Shown here in pieces: positions 16,078-37,569 of a stretch of DNA of 53,158 nucleotides. Each line of letters begins with the position of its first letter. The stretch's first letter is position 1. A program made the translations under genes and the position numbers. The stretch comes from a virus (taxonomy: Duplodnaviria; Caudoviricetes): positions 1 to 53,158 of IMG/VR virus record IMGVR_UViG_3300020183_000104; one strand, given 5' to 3'. Under the pieces are notes generated by a model. The model was not told the origin of the DNA and did not search any database. It saw only the letters and a program-made list of their open reading frames with translations.

Positions 16078-16343
16078 GTTCCGTTGTTCCACTGTGGTGG
16101 AACAGAGATGGAACAGAGTAGGAACAGCCTACTAGCTCTGAGGCTCCGTCGGACGGGCGTTCTGAGGCAGTGGTATTCATGTTCCTGTTCCACTGTTCCA
16201 TCTGATATATATACATATTCAAGTTCGAAACACGAATAATATACGTATATATGCATGGAACAATGGAACAATTGCCGAGAGGCCTTACGTGACGAGGGTT
16301 CTGGCTGTTCCACCTGTGTTCCATCATAATGGAACGGTGGAAC
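16078..16343. repeat. GTTCCA/TGGAAC box array with AT-rich core, copy A (inverted relative to 37307-37569); candidate replication origin
   Basis: About 14 GTTCC/GGAAC boxes in three dyad clusters; AT-rich core 16205-16252; its reverse complement aligns with copy B. Confidence 0.85.
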
Positions 16344-16365
16344 AAGGTCGGAGCAATGCTAAGAC

Positions 16366-16394
16366 TTGCGCTCCGGGGAGAGATGTATTATAAT
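16366..16394 (+). promoter_or_regulatory. sigma70 promoter for the replication operon
   Basis: TTGCGC-17 bp-TATAAT; ATAGAGGA element at 16431-38 before the primase ATG. Confidence 0.6.
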
Positions 16395-16421
16395 TATACC
16401 AGCCCACCGAGGTGGTGTCAA
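16393..16421 (-). promoter_or_regulatory. consensus sigma70 promoter on the minus strand, firing into repeat copy A
   Basis: Minus strand reads TTGACA-17 bp-TATAAT with extended -10 TG (plus strand ATTATA 16393-98, TGTCAA 16416-21). Confidence 0.8.
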
Positions 16422-16447
16422 TAGTAATAGATAGAGGAACATAAAGG

Positions 16448-18001
16448 ATGGAAGGGTTAGTGAACGACTTCGCCGATTTATTCTCGGGGAACCTGCGCTC
16501 TTACGGGCGGTGGGATCCGGTCTCCGGGAACATGTCGACGGTAAAAGGGGAGGTCTCGAACGACCAGTACCTGGAACACCTGGAGGGTGGAATCGGGTTA
16601 GGGATCGTTCCTGTCTCGGACGGTGGTACCTGCAAGTTCGGGGCGATCGATGTGGACAAGCACGAGTCGCCGGAGGATATTGATTTCAAGGCGTTGCAAG
16701 CCAAGATCAACGAGTACCGGCTTCCGCTGGTGATGTGCCGGACCAAACGCGGGGGTGCACACCTATACCTTTTTGGCGACGAATACCTCCCGGCCAAGCA
16801 GGTGCGACGGGTGCTCGGATCGTGGCGGGATGTACTGGGGATTAAGCACAAGACCGAGATCTTTCCGAAGCAGGACTCGCTCGTAACTTCGAGTGGCGAG
16901 AAGGCGCTTGGTAACTGGATTAACCTTTGCTACTTCGACGCTGAGCAGACGCTCAGGTACGGATTCGACGATGATTGCAACAAGCTCTCGTTTGATCTTT
17001 TCCTTCAATATGCGCAAAGCAAGCGCGTCACCGTCGAGCAACTCGCCGAGCTTACCCTTCGCGAGCACCTGGAGGCACCACCCTGCATCCAAAAGATGAT
17101 TCACTCCGGCGTCGAGTCCGGTGCTCGGAATGAGGCGCTGTACAACGTCACCGTGTACCTGAAGAGGGCGAGGCCCGATAACTTTTTCGACGACGCGGTA
17201 GCGCTTAACGGTACGATGTTCGATAAACCGCTCGGGAACGCGGAAGCGAAAAAGGTCATTCGTTCCGCCTCACGGCGCGACTACCTGTATCGGTGTGCCG
17301 AGGAGCCCTGCAAGTCGCTTTGCGATCGGAAGGTGTGTGTAACCCGCGAGTTCGGAATCTCGATGGATGAGAAAAAAGTACTCGACGCCCACGACGCGCT
17401 ACCCCAGTTCTCGGAGCTGATCGAATACCTGTCGGACCCGCCTCGGTGGGGTATACACGTCAACGGGCAGTTGATCTCGAACATCCCGACCGTGGTGCTG
17501 AGGGACCCGAGCCTGATGGGTACGCTCATCTTCGAGCGACTCAAGATCAACATCCCGAAGATCACCCTCGATAATTGGCGCTCCCGGGTGTTGGATCCGC
17601 TGGTACCGAATATCCGGACGATCGAGGTGCCGAAGGAGGCGTCGGCGTCAGGGATCGTGCAAGCGAAGTTCGCCGAGTTCGTGCAGAAGGCCGATCTGTC
17701 CAAGGACGGGAAGGACACCAGTGATCGTAAAGCGCTGCTGCGTAACATCCCGATCGTGCAGGTCATCGACGGGACGCGTTGCGTAGTGTTCCGGGGGACC
17801 GCCTTCTCTGAGTACTTGAAGCGGAATAAAGCCGAGGTTCAGACCGGCATGGATCTGTGGACCACGCTGCGGCGCGATTGCAACGCCTCACACGATAAAA
17901 TCCGCGTGCCGGGTGGTAAGACCCTGAACGTCTGGTACGCTCCCATCACCGAGGAATATGAGGTCAAGGTCGATGAGCCTGAATTTACAACCGAGTTCTA
18001 A
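16448..18001 (+). CDS. archaeo-eukaryotic-type primase-polymerase (PrimPol) with PriCT-like domain
   Basis: GAIDVD (DxD), RTKRGGAHLY (His motif), GNWINL, PPC and GARNEALY; Cys cluster. Confidence 0.8.
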   Translation: MEGLVNDFADLFSGNLRSYGRWDPVSGNMSTVKGEVSNDQYLEHLEGGIGLGIVPVSDGGTCKFGAIDVDKHESPEDIDFKALQAKINEYRLPLVMCRTKRGGAHLYLFGDEYLPAKQVRRVLGSWRDVLGIKHKTEIFPKQDSLVTSSGEKALGNWINLCYFDAEQTLRYGFDDDCNKLSFDLFLQYAQSKRVTVEQLAELTLREHLEAPPCIQKMIHSGVESGARNEALYNVTVYLKRARPDNFFDDAVALNGTMFDKPLGNAEAKKVIRSASRRDYLYRCAEEPCKSLCDRKVCVTREFGISMDEKKVLDAHDALPQFSELIEYLSDPPRWGIHVNGQLISNIPTVVLRDPSLMGTLIFERLKINIPKITLDNWRSRVLDPLVPNIRTIEVPKEASASGIVQAKFAEFVQKADLSKDGKDTSDRKALLRNIPIVQVIDGTRCVVFRGTAFSEYLKRNKAEVQTGMDLWTTLRRDCNASHDKIRVPGGKTLNVWYAPITEEYEVKVDEPEFTTEF

Positions 18002-19712
18002 AGAGACGAGTATCGATTATGACCCTAAAACCGGACGATTCATCGTCTCTTCCCAGCCTTGGCTTCTGGAAAAAGTGCGACAGATTCCTAATCGTCGCTG
18101 GGATTCTCGTCGAAGAGTGTGGACTGCTCCTGCGTTGCGAGCTAATGCTGAGTATATACTCGGTGCTTTTCAAAGTCGCTGTCTTACTGACCGAGCTTCT
18201 GCTGCAGCTCAAGCGGCTCTCGAGAAATCCCGTCCTGTTCAGGGCTCAATGTTTCCGGCTGGTTACACTTTCCGAACGACTCCTCGGCCGTATCAGAGAC
18301 AAGCTCTTGATCGAGCATTCGACAAGAATGTCTTTGCGTATTATATGGACATGGGTACAGGGAAAACGAAGGTCTCTTTGGACCTGTTAGGTGCGCTGTA
18401 CCTTGACCAAAAGGTAGACCGCCTCCTCGTCGTTACTAAGTTTTCGACCCGCAGGAATTGGGAGCGTGAGGTCGGGATTCACCTGCCCTTCGAGGCGGAC
18501 ATCATGGTGCTTGATACCACGAAGCCCAAAGTGTTCGAGAAGTGGAACACGGCGGGTGATCGGTTCAAAATCCTTATCGTCGGGACCGAATCGCTCGCCG
18601 CAGGATCTGCCGTGAACTACGCGGACGCATTTCTGATGGTTTCGACTCGGGCCGCGATGGTGGTGGATGAGGCACACATGATCAAGAACCATTCGGCGGT
18701 GAGGAGTAAGGCATGCGTCTCGCTCGGCCGCAAAGCCGAGTACCGGTTCATCATGACCGGCACCCCGGTGGCGAATGGTCCGATGGACGTCTTTATGCAG
18801 TTCGAGTTCCTGGACCCGAATATCATCGGGATAGGGGATTTCTATTCTTTCCGTAATCGCTACGCGGTGATGGGCGGCTACGAGGGGAAGGAGATCGTCG
18901 GGTATCAGAATCTGGATGAACTGATCGAACTGATTTCCCCGTTCATCTTCCAGGTGCGTAAGTCCGAGGTGCTCACCGAGTTACCCCCGAAAGTGTTCGC
19001 TGTGCGCGAAGTGCAGATGACTGATGAGCAAAAAAGATTATATCGACAGATTTCTAAAGAAGACAAAGCAGTATCTGGAGATCGAGGCGTCACCGTCAAG
19101 TCAGTGCTTGAGCGAATGCTCAGGCTACAGGAGATCTGTGGCGGGATCATTGCGTACGAGCGAAATCCTGACCTTTACAATCCGGACATGTACGAGCATT
19201 GTCGTATCCCGGGTAAGAATCCGAAGGTCGAAGAGCTAAAGGCGATAATGGAGGAAACCGACGGCTCGGTGATCATTTGGTGTCGATTTCTGGAGGAGAT
19301 CGCGATGGTGAGCGAGGCCTTACGCGAGACTTACGGTCGGCGATCCGTAGTAGAAATCCACGGCGGTATTGGGGAGCTGCAGCGGGATGATAATGTCCAG
19401 GCATTTCAGCGCGGCAAAGCGCGGTTTCTAGTCGGCAATGCAGCAACGGGTGGTGTGGGTCTGAATATGACTCGGGCTGAGACTGTGGTGTATTTTTCGA
19501 ATTCGTTCTCCTTTACCGATCGTGATCAGTCCGAGGATCGTGCGCATCGGATCGGGCAGACGAAGTCGGTTACTTATATTGATCTGGTGTGCGAGGGGTC
19601 GGTGGACGAGGTGGTGCTTGATGCACTGCGAAGTAAAAAGGACGTCTCCGAATACGTGCGCCGGAGCATTAATGATGCAAACGAAGATATCTTACGCCGA
19701 TTACTCTCCTAG
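17958..19712 (+). CDS. SNF2-family (SF2) helicase with N-terminal HARP-like domain
   Basis: DMGTGKT, VVDEAH, MTGTPVAN, GVGLNMT and QSEDRAHRIGQ motifs; exact start uncertain. Confidence 0.9.
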   Translation: MRSRSMSLNLQPSSKETSIDYDPKTGRFIVSSQPWLLEKVRQIPNRRWDSRRRVWTAPALRANAEYILGAFQSRCLTDRASAAAQAALEKSRPVQGSMFPAGYTFRTTPRPYQRQALDRAFDKNVFAYYMDMGTGKTKVSLDLLGALYLDQKVDRLLVVTKFSTRRNWEREVGIHLPFEADIMVLDTTKPKVFEKWNTAGDRFKILIVGTESLAAGSAVNYADAFLMVSTRAAMVVDEAHMIKNHSAVRSKACVSLGRKAEYRFIMTGTPVANGPMDVFMQFEFLDPNIIGIGDFYSFRNRYAVMGGYEGKEIVGYQNLDELIELISPFIFQVRKSEVLTELPPKVFAVREVQMTDEQKRLYRQISKEDKAVSGDRGVTVKSVLERMLRLQEICGGIIAYERNPDLYNPDMYEHCRIPGKNPKVEELKAIMEETDGSVIIWCRFLEEIAMVSEALRETYGRRSVVEIHGGIGELQRDDNVQAFQRGKARFLVGNAATGGVGLNMTRAETVVYFSNSFSFTDRDQSEDRAHRIGQTKSVTYIDLVCEGSVDEVVLDALRSKKDVSEYVRRSINDANEDILRRLLS

Positions 19713-19742
19713 TGGTATAATAGGAGTCTGCTACATAGAGGA
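19713..19742 (+). promoter_or_regulatory. extended -10 promoter and ATAGAGGA RBS
   Basis: TGGTATAAT at 19713-21, weak -35; ATAGAGGA before ATG 19751. Confidence 0.5.
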
Positions 19743-19750
19743 ATAGAGCG

Positions 19751-20098
19751 ATGTCATTCCGAGTATTCGTGACCCAAGAAGTCACTACCGCGAACTACAC
19801 CGACCTTGATCGGTGGGGGGAACCCACATTCTTAACCGCGTCTGAGGTCTCGAATGTACGAACTTCGGTCCATAACCGTAAACTGGTACACGTCATCCGA
19901 TCGAAGCTCGAGACCTTTGACCCGCAGCGTGACTATATCGCACCGTCTGGATCTCCAATTGTCACGGGGATTGTATTCGCTGTACTGGCAGCTCAGGGCG
20001 TCCGAAAGTTCCCAGTACTCAAGTGGAATAACCGAGACCGGATATACACTTTGGTCCTTGTAGAAATTGATTCGACGGAGGTGGAAGATGTCATCTGA
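19751..20098 (+). CDS. hypothetical protein
   Basis: 115 aa ORF with RBS in the replication operon. Confidence 0.7.
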   Translation: MSFRVFVTQEVTTANYTDLDRWGEPTFLTASEVSNVRTSVHNRKLVHVIRSKLETFDPQRDYIAPSGSPIVTGIVFAVLAAQGVRKFPVLKWNNRDRIYTLVLVEIDSTEVEDVI

Positions 20099-20531
20099 AG
20101 ACGCACTCAACGAGGAATTCCGGATCTACGACGGATTAAAGCTCACCGAGCTGATAATTCGCATGCACGAGATTCAGGGCAAGAAGGACCGGCTCGAAGC
20201 TCAGGCGAAAGAACTGAACAAGCATTTTGACTTCTTGCGAATCACCAAGATCCCCGGGCAGATGGAAGAGGAGGGGATCGACCGAATCAACGTCACCGGG
20301 GTGGGACGGGTGTCGCTCACCGCAGATATGCACGTGTCGGTCAAGGCGGACAAGAAGGCTGATTTCTACCAGTGGCTGCGCGATAACGGTCGGTCGGACT
20401 TGATCGCCGAGACTGTGAATCCGTCGACGTTAAAGGCTACGGTAAAGAATATGGTCAAGAGCGGTGAGGCGTATCCGGATGAACTCCTGAACGTTTCTCC
20501 TTTCACGCGTGCCTCGATTACGAAGGCATAA
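20088..20531 (+). CDS. hypothetical replication-module protein
   Basis: Likely start ATG 20088 after GGAGG; WLRDNGRSDLI..TVNPSTLKA motif common in phage genes next to SSBs. Confidence 0.7.
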   Translation: MSSEDALNEEFRIYDGLKLTELIIRMHEIQGKKDRLEAQAKELNKHFDFLRITKIPGQMEEEGIDRINVTGVGRVSLTADMHVSVKADKKADFYQWLRDNGRSDLIAETVNPSTLKATVKNMVKSGEAYPDELLNVSPFTRASITKA

Positions 20532-20600
20532 GGACGAATTCGGCGCAAGCCGGGTACTGGCGGGAGGTCCCGTCTGTTAATTGTAATGGAGTAATCACAA

Positions 20601-21347
20601 ATGGCGAAAGCTAAAGGGTTAGTTGCTACCGCGAAGAGCGATTTCAATATTGTCACTACGGATGCTCCCGAGTGGCTCCCGACCGGCACGACGCGGGGAA
20701 CGGAGAACATCACGACGGACGACATGATCATTCCTCGAATCGAGCTGATTCAGGCGTTATCCCCTGCGCGGAACAAGAAGGACTCCTCCTACATCGAGGG
20801 GGCCGAAGAGGGGATGCTGTTCAATAACGTGACCCGCGAGCTTTACGGCGAGTCGGTCACCGTGATCCCGGTGTTCTACACCAAGCAGTACCTGATCTGG
20901 AAGGACCGCAAGCTCGGTGGCGGCAGCAATGGCTTTCGGGGCGCATTCAACACCCGCGAGGATGCACTGGCCGAGATCTCCAAGCTCGGTGAAGATGGGC
21001 TCGAAGCGACAGATACCGCGCAGCACTTCGTGCTCGTACATCATCTGGGGCAGGTCACCGAAGCTGTGCTTTCGATGAGCAAGTCGAAGATGAAGGTCAG
21101 CAAGCGTTGGAATTCGTTGGTGCGCATGACAAATATGGATTCGTTCGCTCGCGCTTACACGTTGTCTTCGGTTGAAGAGACCAACGCGCGGAACGAGTCT
21201 TATTATAATTTCAACATCGCACCGTTTGGATTCGTGAACAAATCGCTTTACGATCGGGCTCTCCAGCTCTTCACCACGATCAAGTCCGGTGGCGTCAAGG
21301 TCAGCAATGATTACGATGCTGCCGATGCTGGTGAATCTGAGTACTGA
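20601..21347 (+). CDS. putative ssDNA-binding / annealing protein
   Basis: GTENITTDDMIIPRIELIQALSP motif, aromatic-rich core, acidic C-tail ending ESEY. Confidence 0.6.
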   Translation: MAKAKGLVATAKSDFNIVTTDAPEWLPTGTTRGTENITTDDMIIPRIELIQALSPARNKKDSSYIEGAEEGMLFNNVTRELYGESVTVIPVFYTKQYLIWKDRKLGGGSNGFRGAFNTREDALAEISKLGEDGLEATDTAQHFVLVHHLGQVTEAVLSMSKSKMKVSKRWNSLVRMTNMDSFARAYTLSSVEETNARNESYYNFNIAPFGFVNKSLYDRALQLFTTIKSGGVKVSNDYDAADAGESEY

Positions 21348-22768
21348 TGCACGTCCGGGCCATTTACGGTCCTCCTGGCACCGGTAAGACCACGGAGTTA
21401 CTGCGGTTAGTGCAGTACACACGCGAGACCGGTGTCCAGGCCGAGCAGATAGCGTTTCTATCGTTCACCCGTGCGGCGGCGAGTGAAGCGTTATCCAGGC
21501 TCGGTCTGAAGCGGTCCGATAACGTATCGACGATTCACGCGATGGCGTTTCGCTCTCTGAGGTTGAAGCAAGCTCAGGTGGTGGACCATATCAAGCTGCG
21601 TGAGTTCTCTAAAGTCACCGGCATTCCGATCGTCGGCAAGTCCCCCGAGGACGATGAAGAGCGCACCGACGGGGATGCTTACTTGGATCTTCTTAACTAT
21701 GCACGGAACACTTTTAGCCACCCTTCCGAAGTCTACGAGACTTCGGATCGTCCGGGCACTCGTGCGGAATACGAGATGTTCGTCTCTGCGTACGCGAACT
21801 GGAAGAAGACCTACGGTTATTACGACTTCACCGATATGCTCGAACGAGCCAGTTCGGGAGCTGTTCGACAAGGGATTGAGGTCCTTTTTGTCGACGAGGC
21901 GCAAGACCTTTCACCTCTGCAGTGGCGTGTTATTGAGCGGCTCACAAAACGCGCTCATCAAGTTTTTGTCGCGGGGGATGATGACCAAGCAATATATGCT
22001 TGGTCGGGCGCTGATCCACACGGTATGGCAAAATTCTGTTCGAAGCACAAGGGTGATAGCGTTGTGCTCTCGCTCTCGCATCGACTTCCTGTTGCAGTGC
22101 ACCAAAAGTCCCAGTCCCTCATTCGCCGAGTCCTTTTCCGCGTGGATAAGAAGTTCGATTCTTGTGGACGCTCAGGCACAGTACGGAACCATGGGTCAAT
22201 GGCGTCGGTTGATGTTGAACACGGCGAGGATACGCTGGTTTTGGCACGGACGCATTCAATCCTGCGCGAGGCTGAAAACGCGCTCATCGATCGCCGCATC
22301 CCCTATGTTCGCGAATCGGGCCGTCCGGGAATGTTCCAGAATCGGTATGCCGTTGGCCTTCGATCCTACAACAAGATTCGTGACGGAAAACGTTTATCAG
22401 ACTCTGATCGATCGGCTCTCTTTACAGTGGGATCAAGGGAGACAAAGGCAGCGCTTGAAAGAAACGATTACATGGCAGTCGTGGCATTCCCCTTCTACAT
22501 TGCGATCGAAATGCCACACCGCGTTATCGATTACTACCAGGAGGTCGACGTCGATGTGGAGCCGACTATACGACTCTCCACTATTCACGCAGCTAAGGGC
22601 CATGAGGCGAATCGCGTCATCGTACTTACGAATATGACGAACCGCGTGGCGGATAATGCACACACTAAGCCTGATGATGAGATCCGGGTGTGGTACGTGG
22701 CGTTGACACGCAGCAAAGACGTATTGGATATTGTGGAGGGCTACAATGGCTATAACCTAGATAATTGA
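21347..22768 (+). CDS. UvrD/Rep-family SF1 helicase
   Basis: GPPGTGKT, FTRAAA, TIHA, VDEAQD, GDDDQAIY, STIHAAKGHE and YVALTRSK motifs. Confidence 0.92.
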   Translation: MHVRAIYGPPGTGKTTELLRLVQYTRETGVQAEQIAFLSFTRAAASEALSRLGLKRSDNVSTIHAMAFRSLRLKQAQVVDHIKLREFSKVTGIPIVGKSPEDDEERTDGDAYLDLLNYARNTFSHPSEVYETSDRPGTRAEYEMFVSAYANWKKTYGYYDFTDMLERASSGAVRQGIEVLFVDEAQDLSPLQWRVIERLTKRAHQVFVAGDDDQAIYAWSGADPHGMAKFCSKHKGDSVVLSLSHRLPVAVHQKSQSLIRRVLFRVDKKFDSCGRSGTVRNHGSMASVDVEHGEDTLVLARTHSILREAENALIDRRIPYVRESGRPGMFQNRYAVGLRSYNKIRDGKRLSDSDRSALFTVGSRETKAALERNDYMAVVAFPFYIAIEMPHRVIDYYQEVDVDVEPTIRLSTIHAAKGHEANRVIVLTNMTNRVADNAHTKPDDEIRVWYVALTRSKDVLDIVEGYNGYNLDN

Positions 22769-22793
22769 CAGATAACCCCACGAGTGATATAAT
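22765..22793 (+). promoter_or_regulatory. consensus sigma70 promoter driving the SSB-dpoZ-purZ operon
   Basis: TTGACA-17-TATAAT with TG extension; CACGAGTG in spacer; ATAGAGGA RBS at 22809. Confidence 0.85.
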
Positions 22794-22820
22794 AGACCCT
22801 TCACCACTATAGAGGACTTA

Positions 22821-27321: not shown

Positions 27322-27518
27322 AATGCGTTAAATGTGGCGGTATCACCCAGGTCACGACCGTGTACCAAAACGCGAATGGTGGAACGCGTCGCCGCAGGGC
27401 ATGCACGGTCTGTCAATTCCGATTCACCACGCGCGAGTATCCGTCGATCACGGATCCGAAGCTCAAAGAGTACTATTTGGAGACAGATGTTGACACAGAT
27501 ACCCCGCCCGTGATATAA
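27318..27518 (+). CDS. NrdR-like N-terminal zinc-ribbon protein
   Basis: MKCVKCG..TRRRRACTVCQFRFTTRE; no ATP-cone domain. Confidence 0.75.
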   Translation: MKCVKCGGITQVTTVYQNANGGTRRRRACTVCQFRFTTREYPSITDPKLKEYYLETDVDTDTPPVI

Positions 27519-27519
27519 T
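27490..27519 (+). promoter_or_regulatory. sigma70 promoter for the HDAC-family gene
   Basis: TTGACA-18-TATAAT with TG extension; ATAGAGGA RBS at 27536. Confidence 0.75.
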
Positions 27520-27548: not shown

Positions 27549-28379
27549 ATGACCCCGATTTTTTACAATCTCCACCAGTCCTGCGACTTCGACTTTCCGT
27601 CTTATCGCAAGATCCCGATGTTCGTGCGACAGGCCGCGCGATCACTGGTTACCGATTTCGAGCCGCTTAAAGACGTCGATTTGATCACCGCGCATTCGGT
27701 TGAGTACGTGGTAAACGTGTTCTTGGGGAAGATTTCTAACGGATTCAGAAACACCGACTCGACGCTCAACGAGACACTCAGGTACACGAACGCGAACTTC
27801 TTGGCTGCAACTCGGCACGTGAGCGAGAAGAAAACGGAGGTCGCATGCTCAGCGACCCAGGGCTTCCACCACGCAGGGTTCGATTTCGGAGGAGGGTACT
27901 GCACGTTCAACGGGTTAATGATCGCGGCGCTCAGCGATGGAGTGATCAAACCGGCGCTTATTCTCGACGGTGACGGCCACTACGGGGATGGGACGGACGA
28001 CATCATCGAGGCGCTGGCTATGCGCGACCGAGTGCGGCACGTGACGAATCTTGATATGCAATCATTCGTCTCGCGCTACAAGCCGAACGCTTGTAACTGG
28101 GAAGTGTGGGCCTCCGGCTTGATTTCGTCGTCGAAGCCTAGTATAATAATGTACCAAGCCGGCGCTGACGCATGGATCGAGGATCCTTATGGTGCGGGGT
28201 ACCTCACTCTTGAGGGTCTGCGGAATCGTGACCTCGGGATCTTTCGCGCAGCCAGGAAGTCCAAGATCCCTCTCGTGTGGAATCTCGCCGGTGGATACTG
28301 CAAAGATGTTCAGCGCACGGTAGACGTGCATATTCAGACACTCAAAGCCAGCGACGAGGTGTACTATGGCGGGACCTAG
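27549..28379 (+). CDS. histone deacetylase family (Zn-dependent amidohydrolase)
   Basis: GFHHAG..GGGYCTFNG, LDGDGHYGDGT, YQAGADAW..DP and LAGGY motifs. Confidence 0.9.
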   Translation: MTPIFYNLHQSCDFDFPSYRKIPMFVRQAARSLVTDFEPLKDVDLITAHSVEYVVNVFLGKISNGFRNTDSTLNETLRYTNANFLAATRHVSEKKTEVACSATQGFHHAGFDFGGGYCTFNGLMIAALSDGVIKPALILDGDGHYGDGTDDIIEALAMRDRVRHVTNLDMQSFVSRYKPNACNWEVWASGLISSSKPSIIMYQAGADAWIEDPYGAGYLTLEGLRNRDLGIFRAARKSKIPLVWNLAGGYCKDVQRTVDVHIQTLKASDEVYYGGT

Positions 28380-30264: not shown

Positions 30265-30283
30265 CCAAGGAGAATGATAGATT

Positions 30284-30568
30284 ATGAATGTTTATCTCAA
30301 TGCAATACTCGAGGAGCGCGGCTCCGAATATGGCGATTTCACCGCACAGGCGCAGATCTCCCAGGCGCTGCAGGACATAGCTAGGGCCGGGTGCAGCTAC
30401 ACCTCGACGGAATCCTACCAGAGGGAGGCACTCGCAATGATTTTACACAAAATCTCTAGGATCGTTAATGGAAACACACGGAACGTTGACTCATGGGCGG
30501 ATATCGCCGGATATGCCACACTCGTTGCAAACCGACTACAAAAGGGAGGGGGGATTGACAGATTGTAG
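30284..30568 (+). CDS. conserved phage hypothetical protein (DUF6378-like)
   Basis: ILEERGSEYGDF..QREALAMILHKISRIVNG..DSWADIAGYATL. Confidence 0.7.
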   Translation: MNVYLNAILEERGSEYGDFTAQAQISQALQDIARAGCSYTSTESYQREALAMILHKISRIVNGNTRNVDSWADIAGYATLVANRLQKGGGIDRL

Positions 30569-30583
30569 CACCCGTGTTATAAT
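30555..30583 (+). promoter_or_regulatory. consensus sigma70 early promoter
   Basis: TTGACA-17-TATAAT; CACCCGTG in spacer; GATAGAGGA RBS. Confidence 0.85.
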
Positions 30584-30906: not shown

Positions 30907-30917
30907 AGCCCCGATAC

Positions 30918-31139: not shown

Positions 31140-31217
31140 CCGACAATTCGACCTAAGGAGGAAAGTTTAAAGAAAACAACACTTTACTACCGTTCGTCGG
31201 ACGACTGGCCAGATCCA

Positions 31218-31246
31218 TTGACAAGTTGTCCCACTGGTATTATAAT
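31218..31246 (+). promoter_or_regulatory. consensus sigma70 early promoter
   Basis: TTGACA-17-TATAAT; preceded by CCGTTCGTCGGACGAC (31190-31205). Confidence 0.85.
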
Positions 31247-31280
31247 AGAGGTTCATCAACCACAATAGAGGACAGTAAAA

Positions 31281-32255
31281 ATGGCACACGAACTCGATTT
31301 TTCAAATGGTCGCGCGAACATGGCCTACGTCGGTCGTACTCCTTGGCACGGGCTGGGACAAGAGCTTGACGCGAATGCGACGCTCGACACCTGGATCGAG
31401 CAGGCGGGGTTTGACTGGGAAGTCAAGAAAGGCGCGATTCAGTACGAGGTGCGCGACGAGGAAAATCACCCCGTCTGCGTGAACACGGTTCCAAACCGCT
31501 GGGTGCTTTATCGCTCAGACACCGGCAAACCGCTTTCGGTCATGTCCTCGAACTACAACATCACCCAGCCGCGCGACGTGATGGAGTTCTTCCGGAACCT
31601 GATCGATATCGGCGGGTTCAAGATGGAGACCGCCGGAATGCTCCGTGATGGTGCCACCTACTGGGCGCTCGCTCGGATTGACGATTCGTTCGACGTCGGT
31701 GGCGGCGACACGATCCGCCCCTACGTTCAGGTCGCGACCTCGTGCGACGGAACGTTGGCGAACGTCGCCCAGTTCACCTCGGTACGGACCGTATGCCAGA
31801 ACACGCTGAACGACGCGCTTCGCGAGTCCCAGGGCCAAGTCCGCATCCCGCATTCGACCAAGTTCAACGCAGAACGCGTGAAAGCGGACCTTGGGCTAAT
31901 CGGCGGGACTTGGGAGCGGTTCAAGAAAGATGCGGTCGAGCTTTCGAAGCGTACGGTGTCTAAGGCCGAGGCGACCAAGTATTTCCTCGACGTGCTCTAC
32001 CCCGACCAGGAAGAGGTCGACCTCGACGCGCATCGCCCGATGCTGGAACTCGTGACTTCGATTTACTTGAACGGCATCGGCCAGAACACCCGCACCGCGA
32101 AGGGTACGGCCTGGGGACTGGTGAATGCGATCACCCGGTTCACGGATCACGAGCGTAAGGCCACGAGCGCAGATACCCGGCTGCAGTCCGCTTGGTTCGG
32201 TGCAGGTGCCCGGATGAAACGAAATGCATTGACTGCGGCGCTCGCTCTGGTATAA
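31281..32255 (+). CDS. DUF932 / TIGR03299-type phage-plasmid protein
   Basis: MAHE..AYVGRTPWHGLG, ETAGMLRDG..WALAR, TSVRTVCQNTL and GTAWGLVNAIT. Confidence 0.85.
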   Translation: MAHELDFSNGRANMAYVGRTPWHGLGQELDANATLDTWIEQAGFDWEVKKGAIQYEVRDEENHPVCVNTVPNRWVLYRSDTGKPLSVMSSNYNITQPRDVMEFFRNLIDIGGFKMETAGMLRDGATYWALARIDDSFDVGGGDTIRPYVQVATSCDGTLANVAQFTSVRTVCQNTLNDALRESQGQVRIPHSTKFNAERVKADLGLIGGTWERFKKDAVELSKRTVSKAEATKYFLDVLYPDQEEVDLDAHRPMLELVTSIYLNGIGQNTRTAKGTAWGLVNAITRFTDHERKATSADTRLQSAWFGAGARMKRNALTAALALV

Positions 32256-32256
32256 T
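32229..32256 (+). promoter_or_regulatory. sigma70-like promoter overlapping the DUF932 stop codon
   Basis: TTGACT-16-TATAAT with TG extension. Confidence 0.55.
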
Positions 32257-32261
32257 GTCAA

Positions 32262-32347
32262 GTGCGGACCTCTTCTCGGTCCGCTTTTCCTGTTTTAAGG
32301 GTTAAGGACGCTTCGGGGGGATCCGCGCAGGGTTCCCCCGTTTTTTT
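32262..32347 (+). ncRNA. candidate ~85-nt small RNA
   Basis: Promoter upstream; hairpin GCGGACC-TCTTCTC-GGTCCGC, U-rich linker, intrinsic terminator; no ORF. Confidence 0.4.
32314..32347 (+). terminator. rho-independent terminator
   Basis: CGGGGGGATCC-GCGCA-GGGTTCCCCCG followed by T7. Confidence 0.85.
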
Positions 32348-32374
32348 CAGATATTAATAGAGGTCTCTACACCA

Positions 32375-32782
32375 ATGGTCACCAAAAAAGGTAAGCTTAC
32401 CACCCCGCCTATCGACGATCATGAGGCGTTGACGTTCAAAAAGCTTGACGCAAGAAAAGCGTTTGGGCAAGTCGGGCTTCCTCTCCCGCTTGAAGCCTGG
32501 ATCGAGGAGAACACCCCGGAACCCGCGAAACCTGCCCCACCCGTTAAAAAGGTTTACACCCGGGACGAGGCCATCCACGAGATCGCCTCCTTCGAGTGTG
32601 AGGGGCTGACCGCGTCGCAGGTGTACGAGATGCTCGTGGGGTCCACGATGCCGTTGCCTTTCAAGACGAACGCGGTATTGGCCAAAATCCTCGCCGAGTG
32701 GCTCGGGGTGGACGAGGTTCAGGTACACTCGACCAACGACTGCGTGAAACGCTGGTTCGTTTCCGCTGAATCCCGGGTGTGA
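32375..32782 (+). CDS. hypothetical protein
   Basis: 135 aa; ATAGAGG upstream. Confidence 0.6.
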   Translation: MVTKKGKLTTPPIDDHEALTFKKLDARKAFGQVGLPLPLEAWIEENTPEPAKPAPPVKKVYTRDEAIHEIASFECEGLTASQVYEMLVGSTMPLPFKTNAVLAKILAEWLGVDEVQVHSTNDCVKRWFVSAESRV

Positions 32783-32815
32783 AGAGCTACATCGTCGGTT
32801 AAAGGAGAAGAACAC

Positions 32816-33223
32816 ATGAACACATATCCATTTGCAGGAGAAATCAAAATGGAAAAAGTAATCAAAGACGGTAAAGAAGTGATTGAGTGGGAGCCTGTAC
32901 CGCTACAGTCAGATCGTTTTAATGTTGATCCTGTCACGGGTAATGTGGGCATTGGCACACCAAGTCAAGAGTTGATTGCATACACCTTCACGCCCCCTGG
33001 CAAAGAATGGGCGCGTATCGACAAAGACATGAACGTCACTCACCTTGACATGGAACTATGCGCAAAAGGCCCACACAACGCCTACAGCGCATTGGCTGTG
33101 GCAATTTGGAATAAAGCGATTGAAACTGAGCGTGAGGAGTGCGCCCAGATTGCTGATAGGTGGACTGACTACGATGTAGAGGGCTTAGCAGTAGCCATCA
33201 GAGCAAGGGGAGTTGATAGATGA
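32816..33223 (+). CDS. hypothetical protein flanked by a 14-bp direct repeat
   Basis: 135 aa; AAGGAG RBS; C-terminal EREECAQIAD..AIRARG typical of small phage genes. Confidence 0.65.
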   Translation: MNTYPFAGEIKMEKVIKDGKEVIEWEPVPLQSDRFNVDPVTGNVGIGTPSQELIAYTFTPPGKEWARIDKDMNVTHLDMELCAKGPHNAYSALAVAIWNKAIETEREECAQIADRWTDYDVEGLAVAIRARGVDR

Positions 33224-33849
33224 GCTACATCGTCGCCTCGCTTCCTCCACAGAAAGTGTTTGTGCGAAAGGAATTCCTTTATAACTTTGAGAAGGGTCAC
33301 GGACAGCTTGAGCCGGCCATTTGGATTAGCTTGAAGGCGCTACGCGGTCAGGTCTTCAGGATCGAATCCTTGCTGCCCAACTACTGCGCCTTGTATGACA
33401 AACTGCCCCTGCATGCTTATGTCTGGAAAGAGAACCATGGCGACCTGCCGATTGACATGCTGCAACTGTGGGATTGCATGGGGTACCGCTTCACGGTCGT
33501 CGAGAAGATAAGTCTACGCAATTTGAGCGCGAAGTTTTTGGACAAGCACAAGGTCTGGCACTTTGGGCGTTACCTGTTCACCGTTGATTTCTGCGCGGAA
33601 AGTATGGATCTTGACACGGGGTTTACGGAGCAAGCCGAGGAGCATAAAAGTTTTAACTTCCTTGCACTTGACAATGGTCAGTTTGCTGCTCAGCCAAATA
33701 ACCGCTGTCTATGGTACGACCAAAGTCTAACGCCCTCTGAGACAAAGACACCGGACTTTCAAGCCGCAAAAAATTTTTGGTCGGTCGATGGCACACGCAA
33801 GTGGGCCGCAGGAAGTGACTGGTTTTACGATTTCCAGGAGCGAACATGA
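33220..33849 (+). CDS. conserved phage hypothetical protein
   Basis: 209 aa; VRKEFLY, LYDKLP, LQLWDC, YLFTVD, EHKS and NGQFAAQPNNR. Confidence 0.75.
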   Translation: MSYIVASLPPQKVFVRKEFLYNFEKGHGQLEPAIWISLKALRGQVFRIESLLPNYCALYDKLPLHAYVWKENHGDLPIDMLQLWDCMGYRFTVVEKISLRNLSAKFLDKHKVWHFGRYLFTVDFCAESMDLDTGFTEQAEEHKSFNFLALDNGQFAAQPNNRCLWYDQSLTPSETKTPDFQAAKNFWSVDGTRKWAAGSDWFYDFQERT

Positions 33850-34214
33850 GCAGAGAACTTATGCAGCAAGCGTTGGAGGCGTTGGAGTGGAACTACAACA
33901 CAGATTTGGACAACATCTATGCATGTGAGCAATGGGCCAAGATTCTGAAAAAAAACATAGCGGCACTGCGCGAGATGCTGGCGCAGCCGGAGCAAGAGCC
34001 GGTGGCGTGGATCAGCGAAAGCGAAAACCTGCTGTCATGGGACAAGTTCTATGACCATATGAAGCCCCTCTACACTGCCCCGAAGCCAGTACAGCAGCCG
34101 CTGAAGTTGCGAGAGATTGAAAAGTGCATCTATGACGCAAACAACGACCTTATTGTTGCTTGCAGGAATGTCGAAGCCGCCCACGGCATCACAGGAGACG
34201 CCTATGAAAGCTGA
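33846..34214 (+). CDS. hypothetical protein (MQQALEALE / QEPVAW family)
   Basis: 122 aa; QPEQEPVAW..PLYTAP. Confidence 0.7.
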   Translation: MSRELMQQALEALEWNYNTDLDNIYACEQWAKILKKNIAALREMLAQPEQEPVAWISESENLLSWDKFYDHMKPLYTAPKPVQQPLKLREIEKCIYDANNDLIVACRNVEAAHGITGDAYES

Positions 34215-34512
34215 CCGTGAAGTTATGCAGCAAGCGCTGGAGGCGCTGGAGTCCGACAACCCCGACATCCAACTACGGGCAGCAGTCGCCCTTCGCAGAG
34301 CACTGGAAGCAGAACCCGAAAGGCTCTTTAGCTTGCAGGTTGGGGCTAATTTTGTGTTGCGCCGAAACAAGAAGGCGTACACATTGGTTGAGTTGCAGTG
34401 GACCCCTGGGATGGGAACACAGTATATCTGCAAGGATCTAAAAACTGGAAAGATCGAACGACTGCACCATAGTGTCCTGGTAGAGAAAGACAAAGCTGGA
34501 AAAGGAGTATGA
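34204..34512 (+). CDS. hypothetical protein (MQQALEALE N-terminus)
   Basis: Likely start ATG 34204 after AGGAG. Confidence 0.6.
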   Translation: MKADREVMQQALEALESDNPDIQLRAAVALRRALEAEPERLFSLQVGANFVLRRNKKAYTLVELQWTPGMGTQYICKDLKTGKIERLHHSVLVEKDKAGKGV

Positions 34513-34590
34513 GATGGACGAAAGCCACGAGTACCAGAACATACCGTTCATCCGATCCGACGAGCGGTGGGTTCGAAATCCGCCTTTGGC

Positions 34591-34619
34591 TTGACAAAGT
34601 ATTGCACCGGTGTTATAAT
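34591..34619 (+). promoter_or_regulatory. consensus sigma70 early promoter
   Basis: TTGACA-17-TATAAT; CACCGGTG in spacer; GATAGAGGA RBS. Confidence 0.85.
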
Positions 34620-34670
34620 AGAGGTTCGTTAGTAGTAAACATTAAACCCTAACCGATAGAGGAAAACGAA

Positions 34671-35318
34671 ATGAACCAAGCCACTACCACAACCGCTCGT
34701 TTTATTCCCACCGACGAACTCGTGTACGTTCTTGCCAAAAAAGGCGGCTGGTCCACTGTAGTTGATGTCGCTGGGGTAGGGCGACCCGGCCGCGAATTTA
34801 AGGTCCGCAATTCCGCGCTGCATGTGATCGTTGAGACCCCAGTCGAGCCCCCAGTCTCGGCCGAGGACGTTCCCGCACCCCAGACCGTAGTGCGCAGCCA
34901 TGATGCCGATGGCACTGGTCCTGTCGCGAAAATGAAAGCCGAGAAAGCCGCAGCTGCTGCTCGCCAAAAGCACCACGCCGCAGTCGCGAAGATGAAAGCC
35001 GAGAAAGCCGCAGCTCCTGCTCGCCAAAAGCTCCCTCTCGACCAGCGCAAGAACGGCGTGGTGGATTCGCTCTACCTGCAGTTTTACAAGAATTACAGCA
35101 AGACCGTGAACGGCCAAGTTGTCCGCTCGTTGGATAAAGGCGATTTCGTGGCGGTCGAGCTTCGCAAGTGCGAGACACTCGAGCAAGTGTACGATTTCGT
35201 CGCGAGCCAGATGGGACTCTCCCGTGTCGATTTGGTCTCCCGGTACGCTCACCTGAACACCGGCATGCAGCGCATGAACCTCGGCAACATGCTGCGCCGC
35301 TACCTCAAAGGAGCGTGA
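34671..35318 (+). CDS. hypothetical early protein with internal 60-bp duplication
   Basis: 215 aa; VAKMKAEKAAA.ARQK x2 (34923-35031); C-terminal YAHLNTGMQRMNLGNMLRR. Confidence 0.75.
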   Translation: MNQATTTTARFIPTDELVYVLAKKGGWSTVVDVAGVGRPGREFKVRNSALHVIVETPVEPPVSAEDVPAPQTVVRSHDADGTGPVAKMKAEKAAAAARQKHHAAVAKMKAEKAAAPARQKLPLDQRKNGVVDSLYLQFYKNYSKTVNGQVVRSLDKGDFVAVELRKCETLEQVYDFVASQMGLSRVDLVSRYAHLNTGMQRMNLGNMLRRYLKGA

Positions 35319-35530
35319 TGACCACAAAACCCGCAAACGTCCGGATCCGCCTCGCGAAGGGGCGGTTTGCCGGTGAAATGCTGTACCAGGGTCGAGTCTA
35401 CAAGTTCGACTGTTCGATCTCGGGGTCGGACATCGACGCTGAATTCAGGACGGTCGGCGAGGAGCCCTTCGACCGCTGGGAGGCTTTCCGAGCGCTTGAA
35501 GCCTGGATCGAGGAGAACCTCTGTGGTTAG
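35318..35530 (+). CDS. hypothetical protein
   Basis: ATG overlaps the upstream TGA; 70 aa. Confidence 0.55.
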   Translation: MTTKPANVRIRLAKGRFAGEMLYQGRVYKFDCSISGSDIDAEFRTVGEEPFDRWEAFRALEAWIEENLCG

Positions 35531-35843
35531 CTGGCCTTTTCCATTTAGCGATCAACCCGACGGCACCTACCGCTCGATTGGGGAACCCGCTGTCGCTTTG
35601 GAAGAGATAGCCTCTCCGAGCCCTTCGGAGGTACCTCCGTTGCATTCGAAGCCTCGGGTTAAGGCTAACGTACCTGACTGGGCCTCCGATGCGCTCCGTG
35701 AGGCCGGGAAGTGCCCCGACGCCCGTTCGAGGCTCTGCGCCCAGTACGGCATCGACTACGCGACGCTCGTCGAGGGAGCACCGAATGCTGGGGTAGCTAC
35801 GATGCGGATCGTGAACGCGCTCCGCCGTTCGTCGAAAAGCTGA
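35523..35843 (+). CDS. hypothetical protein
   Basis: Probable GTG start after GAGGAG; C-terminal NAGVATMRIVNALRR resembles the end of the 34671 protein. Confidence 0.5.
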   Translation: MVSWPFPFSDQPDGTYRSIGEPAVALEEIASPSPSEVPPLHSKPRVKANVPDWASDALREAGKCPDARSRLCAQYGIDYATLVEGAPNAGVATMRIVNALRRSSKS

Positions 35844-35872
35844 CCGTTCGTCGGACGACAGGGGTTGACAAA

Positions 35873-35901
35873 TAGACAAGCTGTTTCACCGGTGTTATAA
35901 T
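35873..35901 (+). promoter_or_regulatory. sigma70 early promoter
   Basis: TAGACA-17-TATAAT (extra TTGACA at 35865); CACCGGTG in spacer; CCGTTCGTCGGACGAC at 35844. Confidence 0.8.
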
Positions 35902-35947
35902 AGAGGTTCGATAGTATTTAAACATCAACCGATAGAGGACTACAGAT

Positions 35948-36241
35948 ATGAAAGCATTCACACCCAGCAACCCGCGTGGCGAGCGGTACGGATTCGCGGC
36001 CTATGTTTTCTTTTTTCCGGTTTGGATTGCTCAAGACAGCATCCAGGTCCACATCGGCGTGCTTGACGACGATGGCGAATACGTCGTGATTAACCGGTGG
36101 GGGAAGGTCTCAGAGCGTCTTGAGCGCCTCCTTACCCCTGCAGATCGCAGGGAAATCGAGAGCAAGATTTCAGACCTTGTACGCGAGGAGTCGGAATACA
36201 GGCGTTGGGAGCACCTTGCGCCGAACGCGGTCAGGGCCTGA
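35948..36241 (+). CDS. hypothetical early protein (chimeric N-terminus)
   Basis: 97 aa; shares RBS and N-terminal DNA with the 36300 gene. Confidence 0.65.
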   Translation: MKAFTPSNPRGERYGFAAYVFFFPVWIAQDSIQVHIGVLDDDGEYVVINRWGKVSERLERLLTPADRREIESKISDLVREESEYRRWEHLAPNAVRA

Positions 36242-36299
36242 CATCCACCGGGGCTTCGGCTCCACACCATCACCCTTTAACTCATAGAGGACTACAGAC

Positions 36300-36686
36300 A
36301 TGCAAGCATTCACACCCAGCAACACTGCCTTCAGCGTGGTTTCCTCCGTCGTTGTGGTCGGCATCGATCCTGAATACGCGGACTACGACAACCCGCGTGG
36401 CGAGTGGTACGGATTCGCGGCTTATGTTCGTGGCTGCAACGATCGTGGCGACACCTGCGAATTGCACGTGGCAACCGATCGGGACGAGGGAATCGCGTTA
36501 GCAAAGGCTAGCAAAATGGCCGATGCGCTCAACGTCCGCGCGAAAAGCCTGGGCAAGCTCCCAGTCGGGTTCGGCTCCTGGGCCACCGGTCGCCCCGTGT
36601 ATGGGTCGGACGCCTACGTCGAGTGTGGACAGGCTGACGATGTGGCGCTCGAAGCGCGAGAATTGGCCGATGAAGGCTGGCGTTGA
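36300..36686 (+). CDS. hypothetical early protein
   Basis: 128 aa; ATAGAGGA RBS; W..GRPVYGSDAY motif. Confidence 0.7.
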   Translation: MQAFTPSNTAFSVVSSVVVVGIDPEYADYDNPRGEWYGFAAYVRGCNDRGDTCELHVATDRDEGIALAKASKMADALNVRAKSLGKLPVGFGSWATGRPVYGSDAYVECGQADDVALEARELADEGWR

Positions 36687-36751
36687 TTTACCCCGGGGCT
36701 TCGGCACCACAGATTCACGAGGTGCAAGATGGCCAGGATGAGAGCACAGCA

Positions 36752-37213
36752 ATGAGCGCGGAAAAGAACCTCTGGGGCTGGCTCGACCTGCGCCTCGGGG
36801 GTCATTGGTTCGCGCAGAGAGTCGAGAACGAAGTCGGACGCAACACCCCGGACGTGTGGTTCGCGCTGTACAAGCTCCGCGCGGTCTCGGGCTGGATCGA
36901 ACTCAAGGTCCTCACCGACCTGCCCAAGCGCCCCGGCACCCCGCTCCGGCTCCCGAAGTGGACCCACGGGCAGCGCAATTGGGCGGTGTCCGCACAAAGG
37001 CATGGGGCTTGGTGTCTCCTGGGGTTGCAAGTGCTCGAACGCCAGGAATTCTTTTTGATCCCCGGGCATGAAGCAGCACGACTGGTCGAAACGCAGGTGC
37101 CGTACGAGGAGACGCTGCACATACTCCGCGTACGAGGGCTGTGCATAGACCAAAAGACTTCACGTGAAATACAAACGCAACGACTAATTGACACGCTGCA
37201 TCAGCCGTGGTAA
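36752..37213 (+). CDS. PD-(D/E)xK nuclease, Holliday-junction resolvase / VRR-NUC-like
   Basis: MSAEKNLW..RVEN..TPDV..WIELK..Q..W; likely start ATG 36752. Confidence 0.75.
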   Translation: MSAEKNLWGWLDLRLGGHWFAQRVENEVGRNTPDVWFALYKLRAVSGWIELKVLTDLPKRPGTPLRLPKWTHGQRNWAVSAQRHGAWCLLGLQVLERQEFFLIPGHEAARLVETQVPYEETLHILRVRGLCIDQKTSREIQTQRLIDTLHQPW

Positions 37214-37216
37214 GAT
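37188..37216 (+). promoter_or_regulatory. sigma70 promoter firing into repeat copy B
   Basis: TTGACA-17-TAAGAT with TG extension; CAGCCGTG in spacer. Confidence 0.7.
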
Positions 37217-37306
37217 TCGTGGATCTGCCCTCTTCGGGCGATGTGTGGTACCCTTGCCACACTGGCCGAGATAAGTCTCGTGCCGTCTTGGCAGCAGCCG
37301 AGAAGT

Positions 37307-37569
37307 GTTCCATCGTTCCATCATGATGGAACACAAATGGAACGGTCAGAAAGCTCCCTCTCGCCCCGTACGACGCACAAGAGAGCCAAGTGTTCCATTG
37401 TTCCACGCACATATACGTATATATTTTTGGTTCGAAAACCTGAATATGGGGGGGTATGAGATGGAACGCTGGAACAGAAGAGGGTACTTGAAGAGAAGCC
37501 CCGAGAGACGGGGCTCTTGGACCAGTGGAATTGTTCCATCGCCGTTCCATTATGGTGGAACGATGGAAC
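37307..37569. repeat. GTTCCA/TGGAAC box array with AT-rich core, copy B (inverted relative to 16078-16343)
   Basis: 12 GTTCCA/TGGAAC boxes in three dyad clusters around an ATATACGTATATAT..GTTCGAAA core. Confidence 0.85.

Follow-up and report, generated by a model that had tools for sequence, protein, structure and literature searches.

The replication origin (ori) of the staphylococcal pathogenicity islands (SaPI) is, in the accessible text of a preprint, a ∼ 300-bp non-coding element beside the primase/initiator gene that carries penta- to heptanucleotide iterons with 2-nt spacers; these iterons, of which some are inverted, are opposed across an AT-rich region, and the winged-helix C-terminal domain of the primase-helicase initiator recognizes them (bioRxiv 10.64898/2026.10.17.759575). 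Phage SPP1 has two similar origin regions, oriL and oriR, about 13 kb apart on the circle and served by one origin-binding protein; for the copy that sits in a late-gene intergenic region, a role in fork stalling and in setting off the theta-to-sigma switch has been proposed (PMC6316719, PMC3485210, in their available sections). Primase-containing initiators with a C-terminal winged helix are described for pRN1 and P4 (the alpha protein) in the available part of PMC2777425. Here we analyse two arrays of short boxes, denoted A and B, in a Caudoviricetes genome from IMG/VR (IMGVR_UViG_3300020183_000104), a complete single-contig virus record whose whole length of 53,158 bp is referred to below as the window. 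The interpretation that we prefer, and hold with evenly balanced confidence, is that the arrays are origin-type iteron nucleoprotein sites of the phage replication module, with the C-terminus of PrimPol as the most likely reader of the boxes.

All long open reading frames (ORFs) of the window lie on its plus strand. The gene set is that of a Z-genome phage, in which Z stands for 2-aminoadenine (a PurZ-type adenylosuccinate synthetase, a family-A polymerase with exonuclease, and MazZ- and DatZ-like hydrolases), and the replication enzymes also include an archaeo-eukaryotic primase (AEP)-type PrimPol, an SNF2 helicase and a UvrD helicase. A replication/early block spans 16.4–37.2 kb, and a late block begins at 37.7 kb and continues over the contig ends as far as 15.9 kb; the arrays fill the two largest gaps between these blocks. 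Array A is located between the last tail gene and the PrimPol gene (16448..18001, plus strand; AEP domain, PriCT-1), which it adjoins. Array B is located between the last early gene and the gene for the small terminase subunit, TerS (37738..38433, plus strand; PHROG 4044), the first gene past the array; TerL and this TerS-like protein are encoded at 37.7–39.8 kb. The arrays do bracket the replication/early module, as a first-pass annotation of the sequence had claimed.

Each array measures ∼ 265 bp and has 12 box positions in three ‘++--’ dyads. Array A (16078..16343, no strand assigned) contains 11 exact GTTCCA/TGGAAC boxes and a degenerate GTTCCG at 16078. Its dyads occupy 16078–16114 (dyad 1, beside which lies a degenerate AGGAAC at 16120), 16187–16269 (central dyad) and 16307–16343 (dyad 3), and its core (16201–16255) holds TTCGAA (16224–16229) and ATATACGTATAT (16239–16250). 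Array B (37307..37569, likewise unstranded) is an inverted copy of A with 12 exact boxes, dyads at 37307–37343, 37392–37475 (central) and 37533–37569, and a core (37406–37461) with ATATACGTATAT (37411–37422) and TTCGAA (37431–37436). The three dyads per array noted in the first pass are present in both copies, with the correction that the twelfth box of A is degenerate. All 23 exact array boxes are identical in sequence and the extended consensus is Y-GTTCCA-Y. Start-to-start spacings are 8/12/11 and 11/12/8 in the outer dyads and, in the central dyad, 8, then a 55–56-nt core, then 8. On both strands of the window together GTTCCA occurs 54 times against 29.1 expected (standard deviation 5.6), a count that none of 100 shuffles reached (largest 47). 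Of these occurrences 23 are inside the arrays (11 in A, 12 in B), and the 31 outside equal the chance expectation (∼ 29).

That A and B are imperfect inverted copies is agreed by direct reading, the repeat finder and global alignment, and the 38-mers quoted for the two copies in the first pass are exact. The repeat finder pairs 16294–16344 with 37306–37356 (I1; 51 nt, 84% complementary) and 16239–16274 with 37387–37422 (I2; 36 nt, 92%), and the reverse complement of A aligns with B at 231/306 identities, versus 205/296 in direct orientation. Because each array is itself two-fold symmetric about TTCGAA (repeat finder I3 and a symmetry test), the inversion is defined only by the off-centre ATATACGTATAT core and the linkers. 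Array A is not an assembly artefact, because it is bridged by contigs of three other lake runs (X3 16018–16379, X4 15631–16671, X5 15088–19575) and is carried by many independent IMG/VR contigs.

Relatives were found via proteins and the box pattern; a DNA-level search of GenBank phages with the arrays gave chance-level matches only. PrimPol retrieved 52 IMG/VR loci and the box pattern 37 more. At least five exact GTTCCA boxes are clustered just upstream of PrimPol in 38 of the 52 PrimPol loci, and 11 of the remaining 14 have a cluster of another box there (GTTACA, CGGATAC, TATCAC or TGTTCC); L045, L047 and L049 have no box cluster upstream of PrimPol. Six complete genomes, the window and five complete relatives that were fetched, make up what we call the family. 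In each of them there are two arrays and no more, A ahead of PrimPol and B ahead of TerS/TerL, and the box mixture does not differ between the two arrays of a genome. The reverse complement of A is 54–77% identical to B within a genome, versus 42–69% for A–A or B–B comparisons between genomes. A pair is also present in the distant fragment G006, which uses a TATCAC box, and in four cultured PurZ/DpoZ phages: Acinetobacter SH-Ab 15497, with the box GAGCAACC, and Salmonella PMBT28, Klebsiella VLCpiS6a and Providencia Kokobel2, which have the window's (C/G)GTTCCA box at only 42–45% PrimPol identity. The arrays are known in these 11 genomes, in all of which array A ends 50–250 bp upstream of PrimPol, and the search of related PurZ phages that the first pass had called for has in this way recovered the same pair.

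Further elements were seen in or near the arrays. A TGTCGC-N(3–6)-GCGACA palindrome lies inside an array or at its edge in G002, G003, G004, SH-Ab 15497 (L126, 20930 and 43154) and PMBT28 (L127, 20859 and 43616), and may be the site of a second, dimeric factor; the window and G001 lack it and have a GGTTCGAAAACC-type core instead. Kokobel2 (L129) has a third intergenic region, 13371–13470, with three copies of ATCTTTTGTACCC upstream of the same consensus promoter that follows its array B; this repeat looks like a separate operator-like element. Upstream of array A, an AGCTA(N6–8)TAGCT palindrome coincides with the place where the last tail gene stops (window 15930–15950), and by eye is kept at the corresponding place in L009, L018, L031 and L051.

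Gene content indicates that the arrays travel with the replication module and not with the terminase. Only 12 of the 174 plus-strand ORFs of the window have homologues in the four cultured phages, namely PrimPol, SNF2, three proteins resembling Pam3 gp32, gp33 and gp34, UvrD, SSB, DpoZ, PurZ, the MazZ- and DatZ-like proteins and p215 (C-terminal domain). TerS, TerL, the portal and the major capsid protein of the window show no similarity to the proteins of these phages. The relative G003 has an unrelated TerS and a TerL of 40% identity, yet its arrays are the same as those of G002, and nucleotide similarity between the two starts right after array A and runs to PurZ, with none in the tail genes. 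The persistence of the arrays beside unrelated TerS and TerL proteins places them with the replication module. The replication modules of G002 (5778–15318) and G003 (39125–49331) have 68–72% DNA identity, their tail and packaging genes are unrelated, and the arrays mark the junction of the mosaic modules. The TerL match of G002 (C1:30267–31715) holds one in-frame TAG, which could reflect a sequencing error, a pseudogene or recoding.

Across relatives the boxes drift within GT-N-N-C (GTTCCA, GTTACA, GTACCA, GTATCC) and different forms are mixed within arrays. Eleven of 41 distinct compact dyads are non-complementary; in five of these, two GTATCC boxes are combined with two TGGAAC boxes (3/6 positions in both nested pairs), with box number and orientation kept. 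SH-Ab 15497 and the enterobacterial phages have tandem direct boxes at an 8-bp period. Symmetry spans the whole array in 7 of 12 arrays of the window's family and is at shuffle level in five lineages (SH-Ab 15497, PMBT28, VLCpiS6a, Kokobel2 and G006). Since mixed dyads break the pairing, boxes occur as direct tandems and whole-array symmetry is lineage-specific, these comparisons favour protein-binding sites over RNA hairpins. A likeness of TGTTCCAC and GTATCC to DnaA boxes was considered and rejected by eye: the box types fit different registers of the DnaA consensus and have no CACA.

The best candidate for the box reader, on the evidence of structure prediction, is a winged-helix-like region of PrimPol at about residues 393–509, C-terminal to an invariant four-cysteine cluster (C283/C288/C292/C297). 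The C-terminal 247 residues have a confident predicted fold (predicted local distance difference test, pLDDT, of 80.3). An exhaustive structural aligner lists for this model mostly winged-helix DNA binders with Z scores of 5–7.1, among them oriT-bound TcpK (Z 7.1, root-mean-square deviation 3.5, 91 residues aligned), SaPIbov1 Rep (Z 6.4), Cch (Z 6.3) and the winged helices of MCM8 and ORC2 (Z 5.9). PrimPol has no sequence homologue in the PDB, and the winged-helix likeness is suggestive only.

A second candidate binder is p215 (34671..35318, plus strand), which has an SH3/KOW-like N-terminal barrel, a K/A-rich linker and a conserved C-terminal domain. The helical C-terminal domain is highly conserved, with an invariant HLNxGMQRMNLGN, and the linker is basic and helical. 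Foldseek and VIA comparisons, which hardly took in the C-terminal domain, gave only SH3/KOW-like structural matches, to residues 1–60 (Z up to 7.0), and none of 90 homologues carries an annotation. The linker contains a 60-nt tandem duplication (34923–35034) and varies widely in length among homologues. The product of 36683..37213 (plus strand; PHROG 2165) resembles a PD-(D/E)xK-type nuclease by a motif seen by eye (ERVEN..GTPD..WIELK) and has no Pfam, NCBIfam or PDB sequence match. Its gene is the last before B in all six family genomes; it was rejected as the binder, being adjacent to an array in the family only and not in SH-Ab 15497 or PMBT28. The gp33- and gp34-like proteins gave no informative PDB or Atlas match.

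Putative promoters were called as matches to the sigma-70-type consensus; the template would be Z-substituted. In the window a perfect TTGACA-17-TATAAT (16421–16393, minus strand; 12/12, extended TG) is directed leftward into A, and a promoter-like TTGACA-17-TAAGAT (37188–37216, plus strand; 10/12) is directed rightward into B and on to the terminase genes. Both sites are as the first pass described them, in the same relative orientation to their arrays. Its remark that the former was the only minus-strand promoter noticed stands for 12/12 matches; at lower stringency four 10/12 matches are present on that strand (2589, 13734, 19066 and 26895). Among 38 distinct PrimPol-upstream segments (duplicates collapsed, five distant loci left out), 28 have the leftward A-side promoter at 10/12 or better, six have a PrimPol-directed promoter only and four have none. 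No conserved ORF was found downstream of the leftward promoter among the relatives, and a conserved promoter that drives no conserved ORF fits transcription through an origin. A promoter into B is present in all eight distinct close relatives and scores at least 9/12 in three of the six complete genomes; with 28/38 on the A side, promoters firing into both arrays are not supported as a general feature. In the clade with D boxes and in the cultured phages the promoter beside A points away from A, into PrimPol, and the clear promoters of the cultured phages are downstream of the arrays and directed away from them.

With its near-palindromic −10 region (TATTATAATTATA), the leftward promoter could work in both directions; some relatives have an overlapping rightward TTGATG-17-TATAAT at this position. 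In the stretch with the PrimPol-SNF2-UvrD operon (window 16448–22768), no plus-strand promoter of at least 10/12 was found between array A and 22703. Elsewhere in the early region there are plus-strand promoters of 12/12 (22765–22793, 27490–27519, 30555–30583, 31218–31246 and 34591–34619) and 11/12 (32229–32256 and 35873–35901), several of which form part of a repeated ∼ 38-nt cassette ending TATAATAGAG (repeat family D3). Perfect TTGACA-17/18-TATAAT promoters are unusually many in the early region of the window and likewise in relatives (e.g. nine of 12/12 in G005); perhaps Z-substituted templates require promoters of consensus sequence.

The anatomy, pairing, conservation and module linkage of the arrays and the hairpin-breaking drift of their boxes are shown by the sequences; what follows on binding and its agent, on initiation, and on what transcription and the second array do is inferred. 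The twelve Y-GTTCCA-Y boxes, opposed around the core, would be bound by multiple copies of one protein of the replication module, most likely through the winged-helix-like C-terminal region of PrimPol, and this nucleoprotein assembly would mark the start of replication. Array A, which adjoins PrimPol in every genome examined, would most likely be the primary origin. Array B would be a second copy read by the same protein, either a second origin or a fork-stalling site close before the packaging genes that, as proposed for SPP1 oriR, might help replication to change over to concatemers. A dedicated non-coding promoter would, in the window's family, transcribe through A, and this may help to open the Z:T-paired DNA or supply a primer.

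Several observations weigh against the origin interpretation or against PrimPol as the reader. The relative orientation of A and B is not conserved: they are inverted in all six family genomes (inverted alignment better than direct), in SH-Ab 15497 (scores 213 versus 50) and in G006 (147 versus 47), and are direct repeats in PMBT28, VLCpiS6a and Kokobel2 (75–78 versus 32–54), so a mechanism that requires inversion cannot be general. The distant fragments G007 and G008, which are only 64–80% complete, showed no array by the 7-mer criterion. The AT-rich core is lineage-specific; its place in the central dyad, as first annotated, is right for the window, but it is confined to the window's sublineage, and many relatives have the TGTCGC..GCGACA palindrome or a GC-containing core instead. 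By the established chemistry of Z:T pairs, moreover, a core rich in A/T would be harder to melt in a Z genome. GC skew is positive throughout with no polarity switch at either array, although skew is uninformative here because all genes are on one strand and it is dominated by transcription. In the cultured phages both arrays are just upstream of rightward promoters, which fits transcription control equally well. As to the reader, the structural Z scores of the PrimPol C-terminus are middling (< 8) and Foldseek found no match to the model at E ≤ 0.001. No grouping by box type is seen in the identity matrices of ten proteins (including PrimPol, SNF2, the gp33/34-like proteins, UvrD, DpoZ, PurZ, p215 and the nuclease), and, domain by domain, the PrimPols of phages that share the window's box are as close to that of the window as are those of phages with another box (winged-helix region 37–40% versus 39–43%). 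In a quick tree the box type follows PrimPol only loosely, with D boxes confined to one PrimPol clade and A boxes arising in at least three places.

We also entertain, as a tentative extension that is possible but open to real doubt, that the arrays are the first definable origins of Z-genome phages and of a distinct design. Two PrimPol-read iteron arrays at the borders of the replication module would then serve without a DnaB-, SF3- or MCM-type helicase or a loader; since the easily melted A/T element is lost with Z:T pairing, they would in at least one large family depend on a dedicated non-coding promoter for opening or priming, and the second copy would set up opposite-strand initiation or the concatemer switch. 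No DnaB-type and no SF3 or MCM helicase was found among the 30 window proteins scanned with Pfam, the helicases there being of the SNF2 and UvrD types only; the first pass had likewise noted no DnaB-type helicase.

The main rival, which we consider fairly unlikely, is that the arrays are transcription-control or boundary elements, either regulator sites that co-ordinate the PrimPol and late operons or roadblocks between early and late transcription. Their position speaks for this: they occupy two large intergenic gaps at operon borders, beside promoters in every genome inspected, B of the window is in the leader of the late operon, and the direct arrays of the enterobacterial phages are each followed by a rightward promoter within roughly 25–240 bp (by eye). 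The geometry is, however, inconsistent for an operator, a ∼ 265-bp array lying 50–90 bp downstream of the promoter in the window and upstream of it in the cultured phages, and in the window's family, SH-Ab 15497 and G006 arrays A and B are not oriented alike relative to the promoter beside them. There are no boxes at the seven other plus-strand promoters of 11–12/12 (beginning at 22765, 27490, 30555, 31218, 32229, 34591 and 35873), boxes outside the arrays being only at chance level, and none of the 12 shared proteins matches a known transcription-factor family in Pfam, PHROG or NCBIfam.

The first-pass annotation had itself proposed two strand-specific origins, each serving one strand and activated by transcription or primed by RNA, from which PrimPol, UvrD and DpoZ would replicate by strand displacement. 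This two-strand, transcript-primed model is a less general sub-case of the origin interpretation, and in our judgement an unlikely one. Promoter and array together form units that are inverted copies of each other in the window's family, with both promoters firing into their arrays, the A-side promoter is conserved in 28/38 relatives and is non-coding, inverted pairs recur in SH-Ab 15497 and G006, and the lack of a DnaB-type helicase among the 30 scanned proteins would suit it. Two strand-specific origins need inverted arrays, however, and the arrays of PMBT28, VLCpiS6a and Kokobel2 are direct, which defeats the proposal as a general one. Moreover, the B-side promoter reaches 9/12 in only three of six genomes, ten of the 38 A-side segments have either a PrimPol-directed promoter alone (six) or none (four), the strong promoters of the cultured phages lie downstream of the arrays and point away, and the near two-fold symmetry of each window array does not suggest strand specificity.

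Structured RNA was another alternative named in the first pass. In the form considered here, same-sense transcripts of the reverse complement of A and of B would act as functional leaders or non-coding RNAs, for example as antiterminators like the put RNA of HK022. The window promoters do fire into both arrays and would give transcripts of the same sense, the predicted folds are far more stable than those of shuffles (z −6.9 and −8.9), and some box changes are double (GTTACA with TGTAAC). This stability arises by construction from identical opposed boxes, and the identity of all 23 boxes is not needed for pairing. The whole window has no Rfam match at the gathering score, and promoter orientation is not conserved. 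With 11/41 dyads losing complementarity while the presence and orientation of the boxes persist, tandem direct boxes in the cultured phages and whole-array symmetry absent from five lineages, we regard an RNA function as very improbable.

Recombination sites, whether for site-specific inversion of the 21-kb segment or as ‘linker’ sequences that promote module exchange, are a still fainter prospect that we would hardly credit. Inverted repeats do occur in the window's family, the G002–G003 mosaic junction falls exactly at the arrays, and A and B of one genome show concerted evolution; exchange of modules at this point may nevertheless be a by-product of conserved sequence. None of 28 arrays with both flanks identified has an inversion junction, and in all six family genomes the genes are on one strand. 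No strand-changing joint was found in four runs, which were available as contigs only and would hide minor forms; loose ends at 16239, 16274 and 16344 read as the reverse complement of array B with its flanks, that is, most probably as array-B contigs on shared boxes and not as hybrid junctions. A Pfam scan of 30 proteins, among them not all of the smaller ORFs, turned up no recombinase family, and in three phages the arrays are direct and the segment between them is not deleted. The inversion alternative of the first pass is accordingly less well supported than its origin proposal. A packaging signal (pac/cos) read by the small terminase is, from the gene comparisons, excluded for practical purposes: array B is directly upstream of TerS in the window's family and SH-Ab 15497, but arrays persist alongside unrelated TerS and TerL (G003; the four cultured phages versus the window), a second copy is at PrimPol, and B is ∼ 2 kb from TerS in PMBT28, VLCpiS6a and Kokobel2.

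Some features of the window are unconnected with the arrays. In the early region 27549–28379 encodes a protein of the histone-deacetylase family (PF00850, E 2.3e-21). The 5′ ends of the small genes 35948–36241 and 36300–36686 are 91–95% identical, ribosome-binding region included (35927–36007 versus 36279–36428), and the two look, from their sequences, like recent paralogues whose C-termini have diverged. An ORF of 1970 aa (5329–11241) has several in-frame tandem repeats, comprising a 12-nt CCACCT-type run (5639–5752), 51-nt units (9635–9830 and 10771–10872) and 39- and 30-nt units (8114–8191 and 9884–9943, respectively), and its similarity to relatives is local only (4–14% coverage).

The literature searched does not treat the initiation of replication in Z-genome phages and deals chiefly with PurZ, DatZ, MazZ and DpoZ. 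Conserved, easily recognized and linked to the PrimPol-SNF2-UvrD-DpoZ module, the arrays are a cis element at which the start of replication can be sought, and their presence in cultured Salmonella, Klebsiella, Providencia and Acinetobacter phages makes them directly testable. If the arrays are origins, they would represent a helicase-loader-free, PrimPol-linked initiation system, would raise the question of how the duplex opens when A:T is replaced by three-bond Z:T pairs, and could serve as a minimal ori in the construction of Z-DNA replicons; in the regulatory case they would define the early/late switch of this phage group. We found no description of these arrays in the literature searched, which included the available text of PMC8065100, bioRxiv 2025.10.22.683976 and PMC12944874 and had subscription papers and supplements outside its range. 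To that extent the first pass was right that no description is known, but close functional analogues exist in the SaPI ori and SPP1 oriL/oriR.

Resemblances to known systems are found at several levels. The lambda operators OL and OR are two inverted sets of three dyad sites, all bound by one protein, with PL and PR directed outward; they overlap their promoters, flank the repressor gene and are 2.4 kb apart. The window shares the two inverted sets of three dyads, each with an outward promoter, but its promoters end 50–90 bp before the arrays, the arrays are separated by 21 kb, and nothing like a repressor is co-inherited with them. The core origin of SV40 and the polyomaviruses has four short boxes arranged ‘++--’ as two inverted pairs, and oriL and oriS of herpes simplex virus (HSV) are palindromic, with opposed initiator boxes around an A/T core and multiple origin copies per genome. 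The ‘++--’ boxes of the window are alike, whereas these are eukaryotic viruses with initiator helicases of superfamily (SF) 3 or SF2, and homology is not implied.

Transcript-activated or -primed origins include the T7 primary origin, T4 oriF and oriG and ColE1 RNA II, and in RSF1010 the paired opposite-strand initiation signals ssiA and ssiB are used by the AEP-like primase RepB′. On its A side the window's family resembles the T7, T4 and ColE1 origins in having a promoter into the putative origin region that yields no gene product; unlike it, T7 and T4 origins are not known to contain such iteron arrays, and the array-directed promoters are not conserved across the wider group. In P4, ori and crr are two separated clusters of octamer iterons, ∼ 4.5 kb apart and bound by alpha, the second of which is needed in cis. 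The two separated clusters of short iterons are a shared feature, and the difference lies in alpha, which has a DnaG-type primase and an SF3 helicase.

SPP1 and SaPI remain the closest parallels. Like SPP1, these genomes have two similarly organized distant regions; the identical box mix of the two arrays of each genome would be consistent with a common binding protein. SPP1 differs in having direct repeats with a DNA unwinding element, the origin-binding protein gp38, a loader, a DnaB-type helicase and oriL inside gene 38; in the window the boxes are opposed hexamers, the copies lie at both borders of the replication/early module, and proteins like gp38, gp39 or gp40 of SPP1 were not detected. 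SaPI differs in having one ori and a fused or adjacent SF3- or MCM-type helicase, compared with two arrays in the window and an AT-rich core that is not conserved. As far as the available description of the SaPI ori goes, the arrays nevertheless resemble it in their size of ∼ 265 bp, their opposed hexamers with 2-nt spacers, their central core and their place next to a primase gene, and the C-terminal part of PrimPol shows a weak fold similarity to SaPIbov1 Rep.

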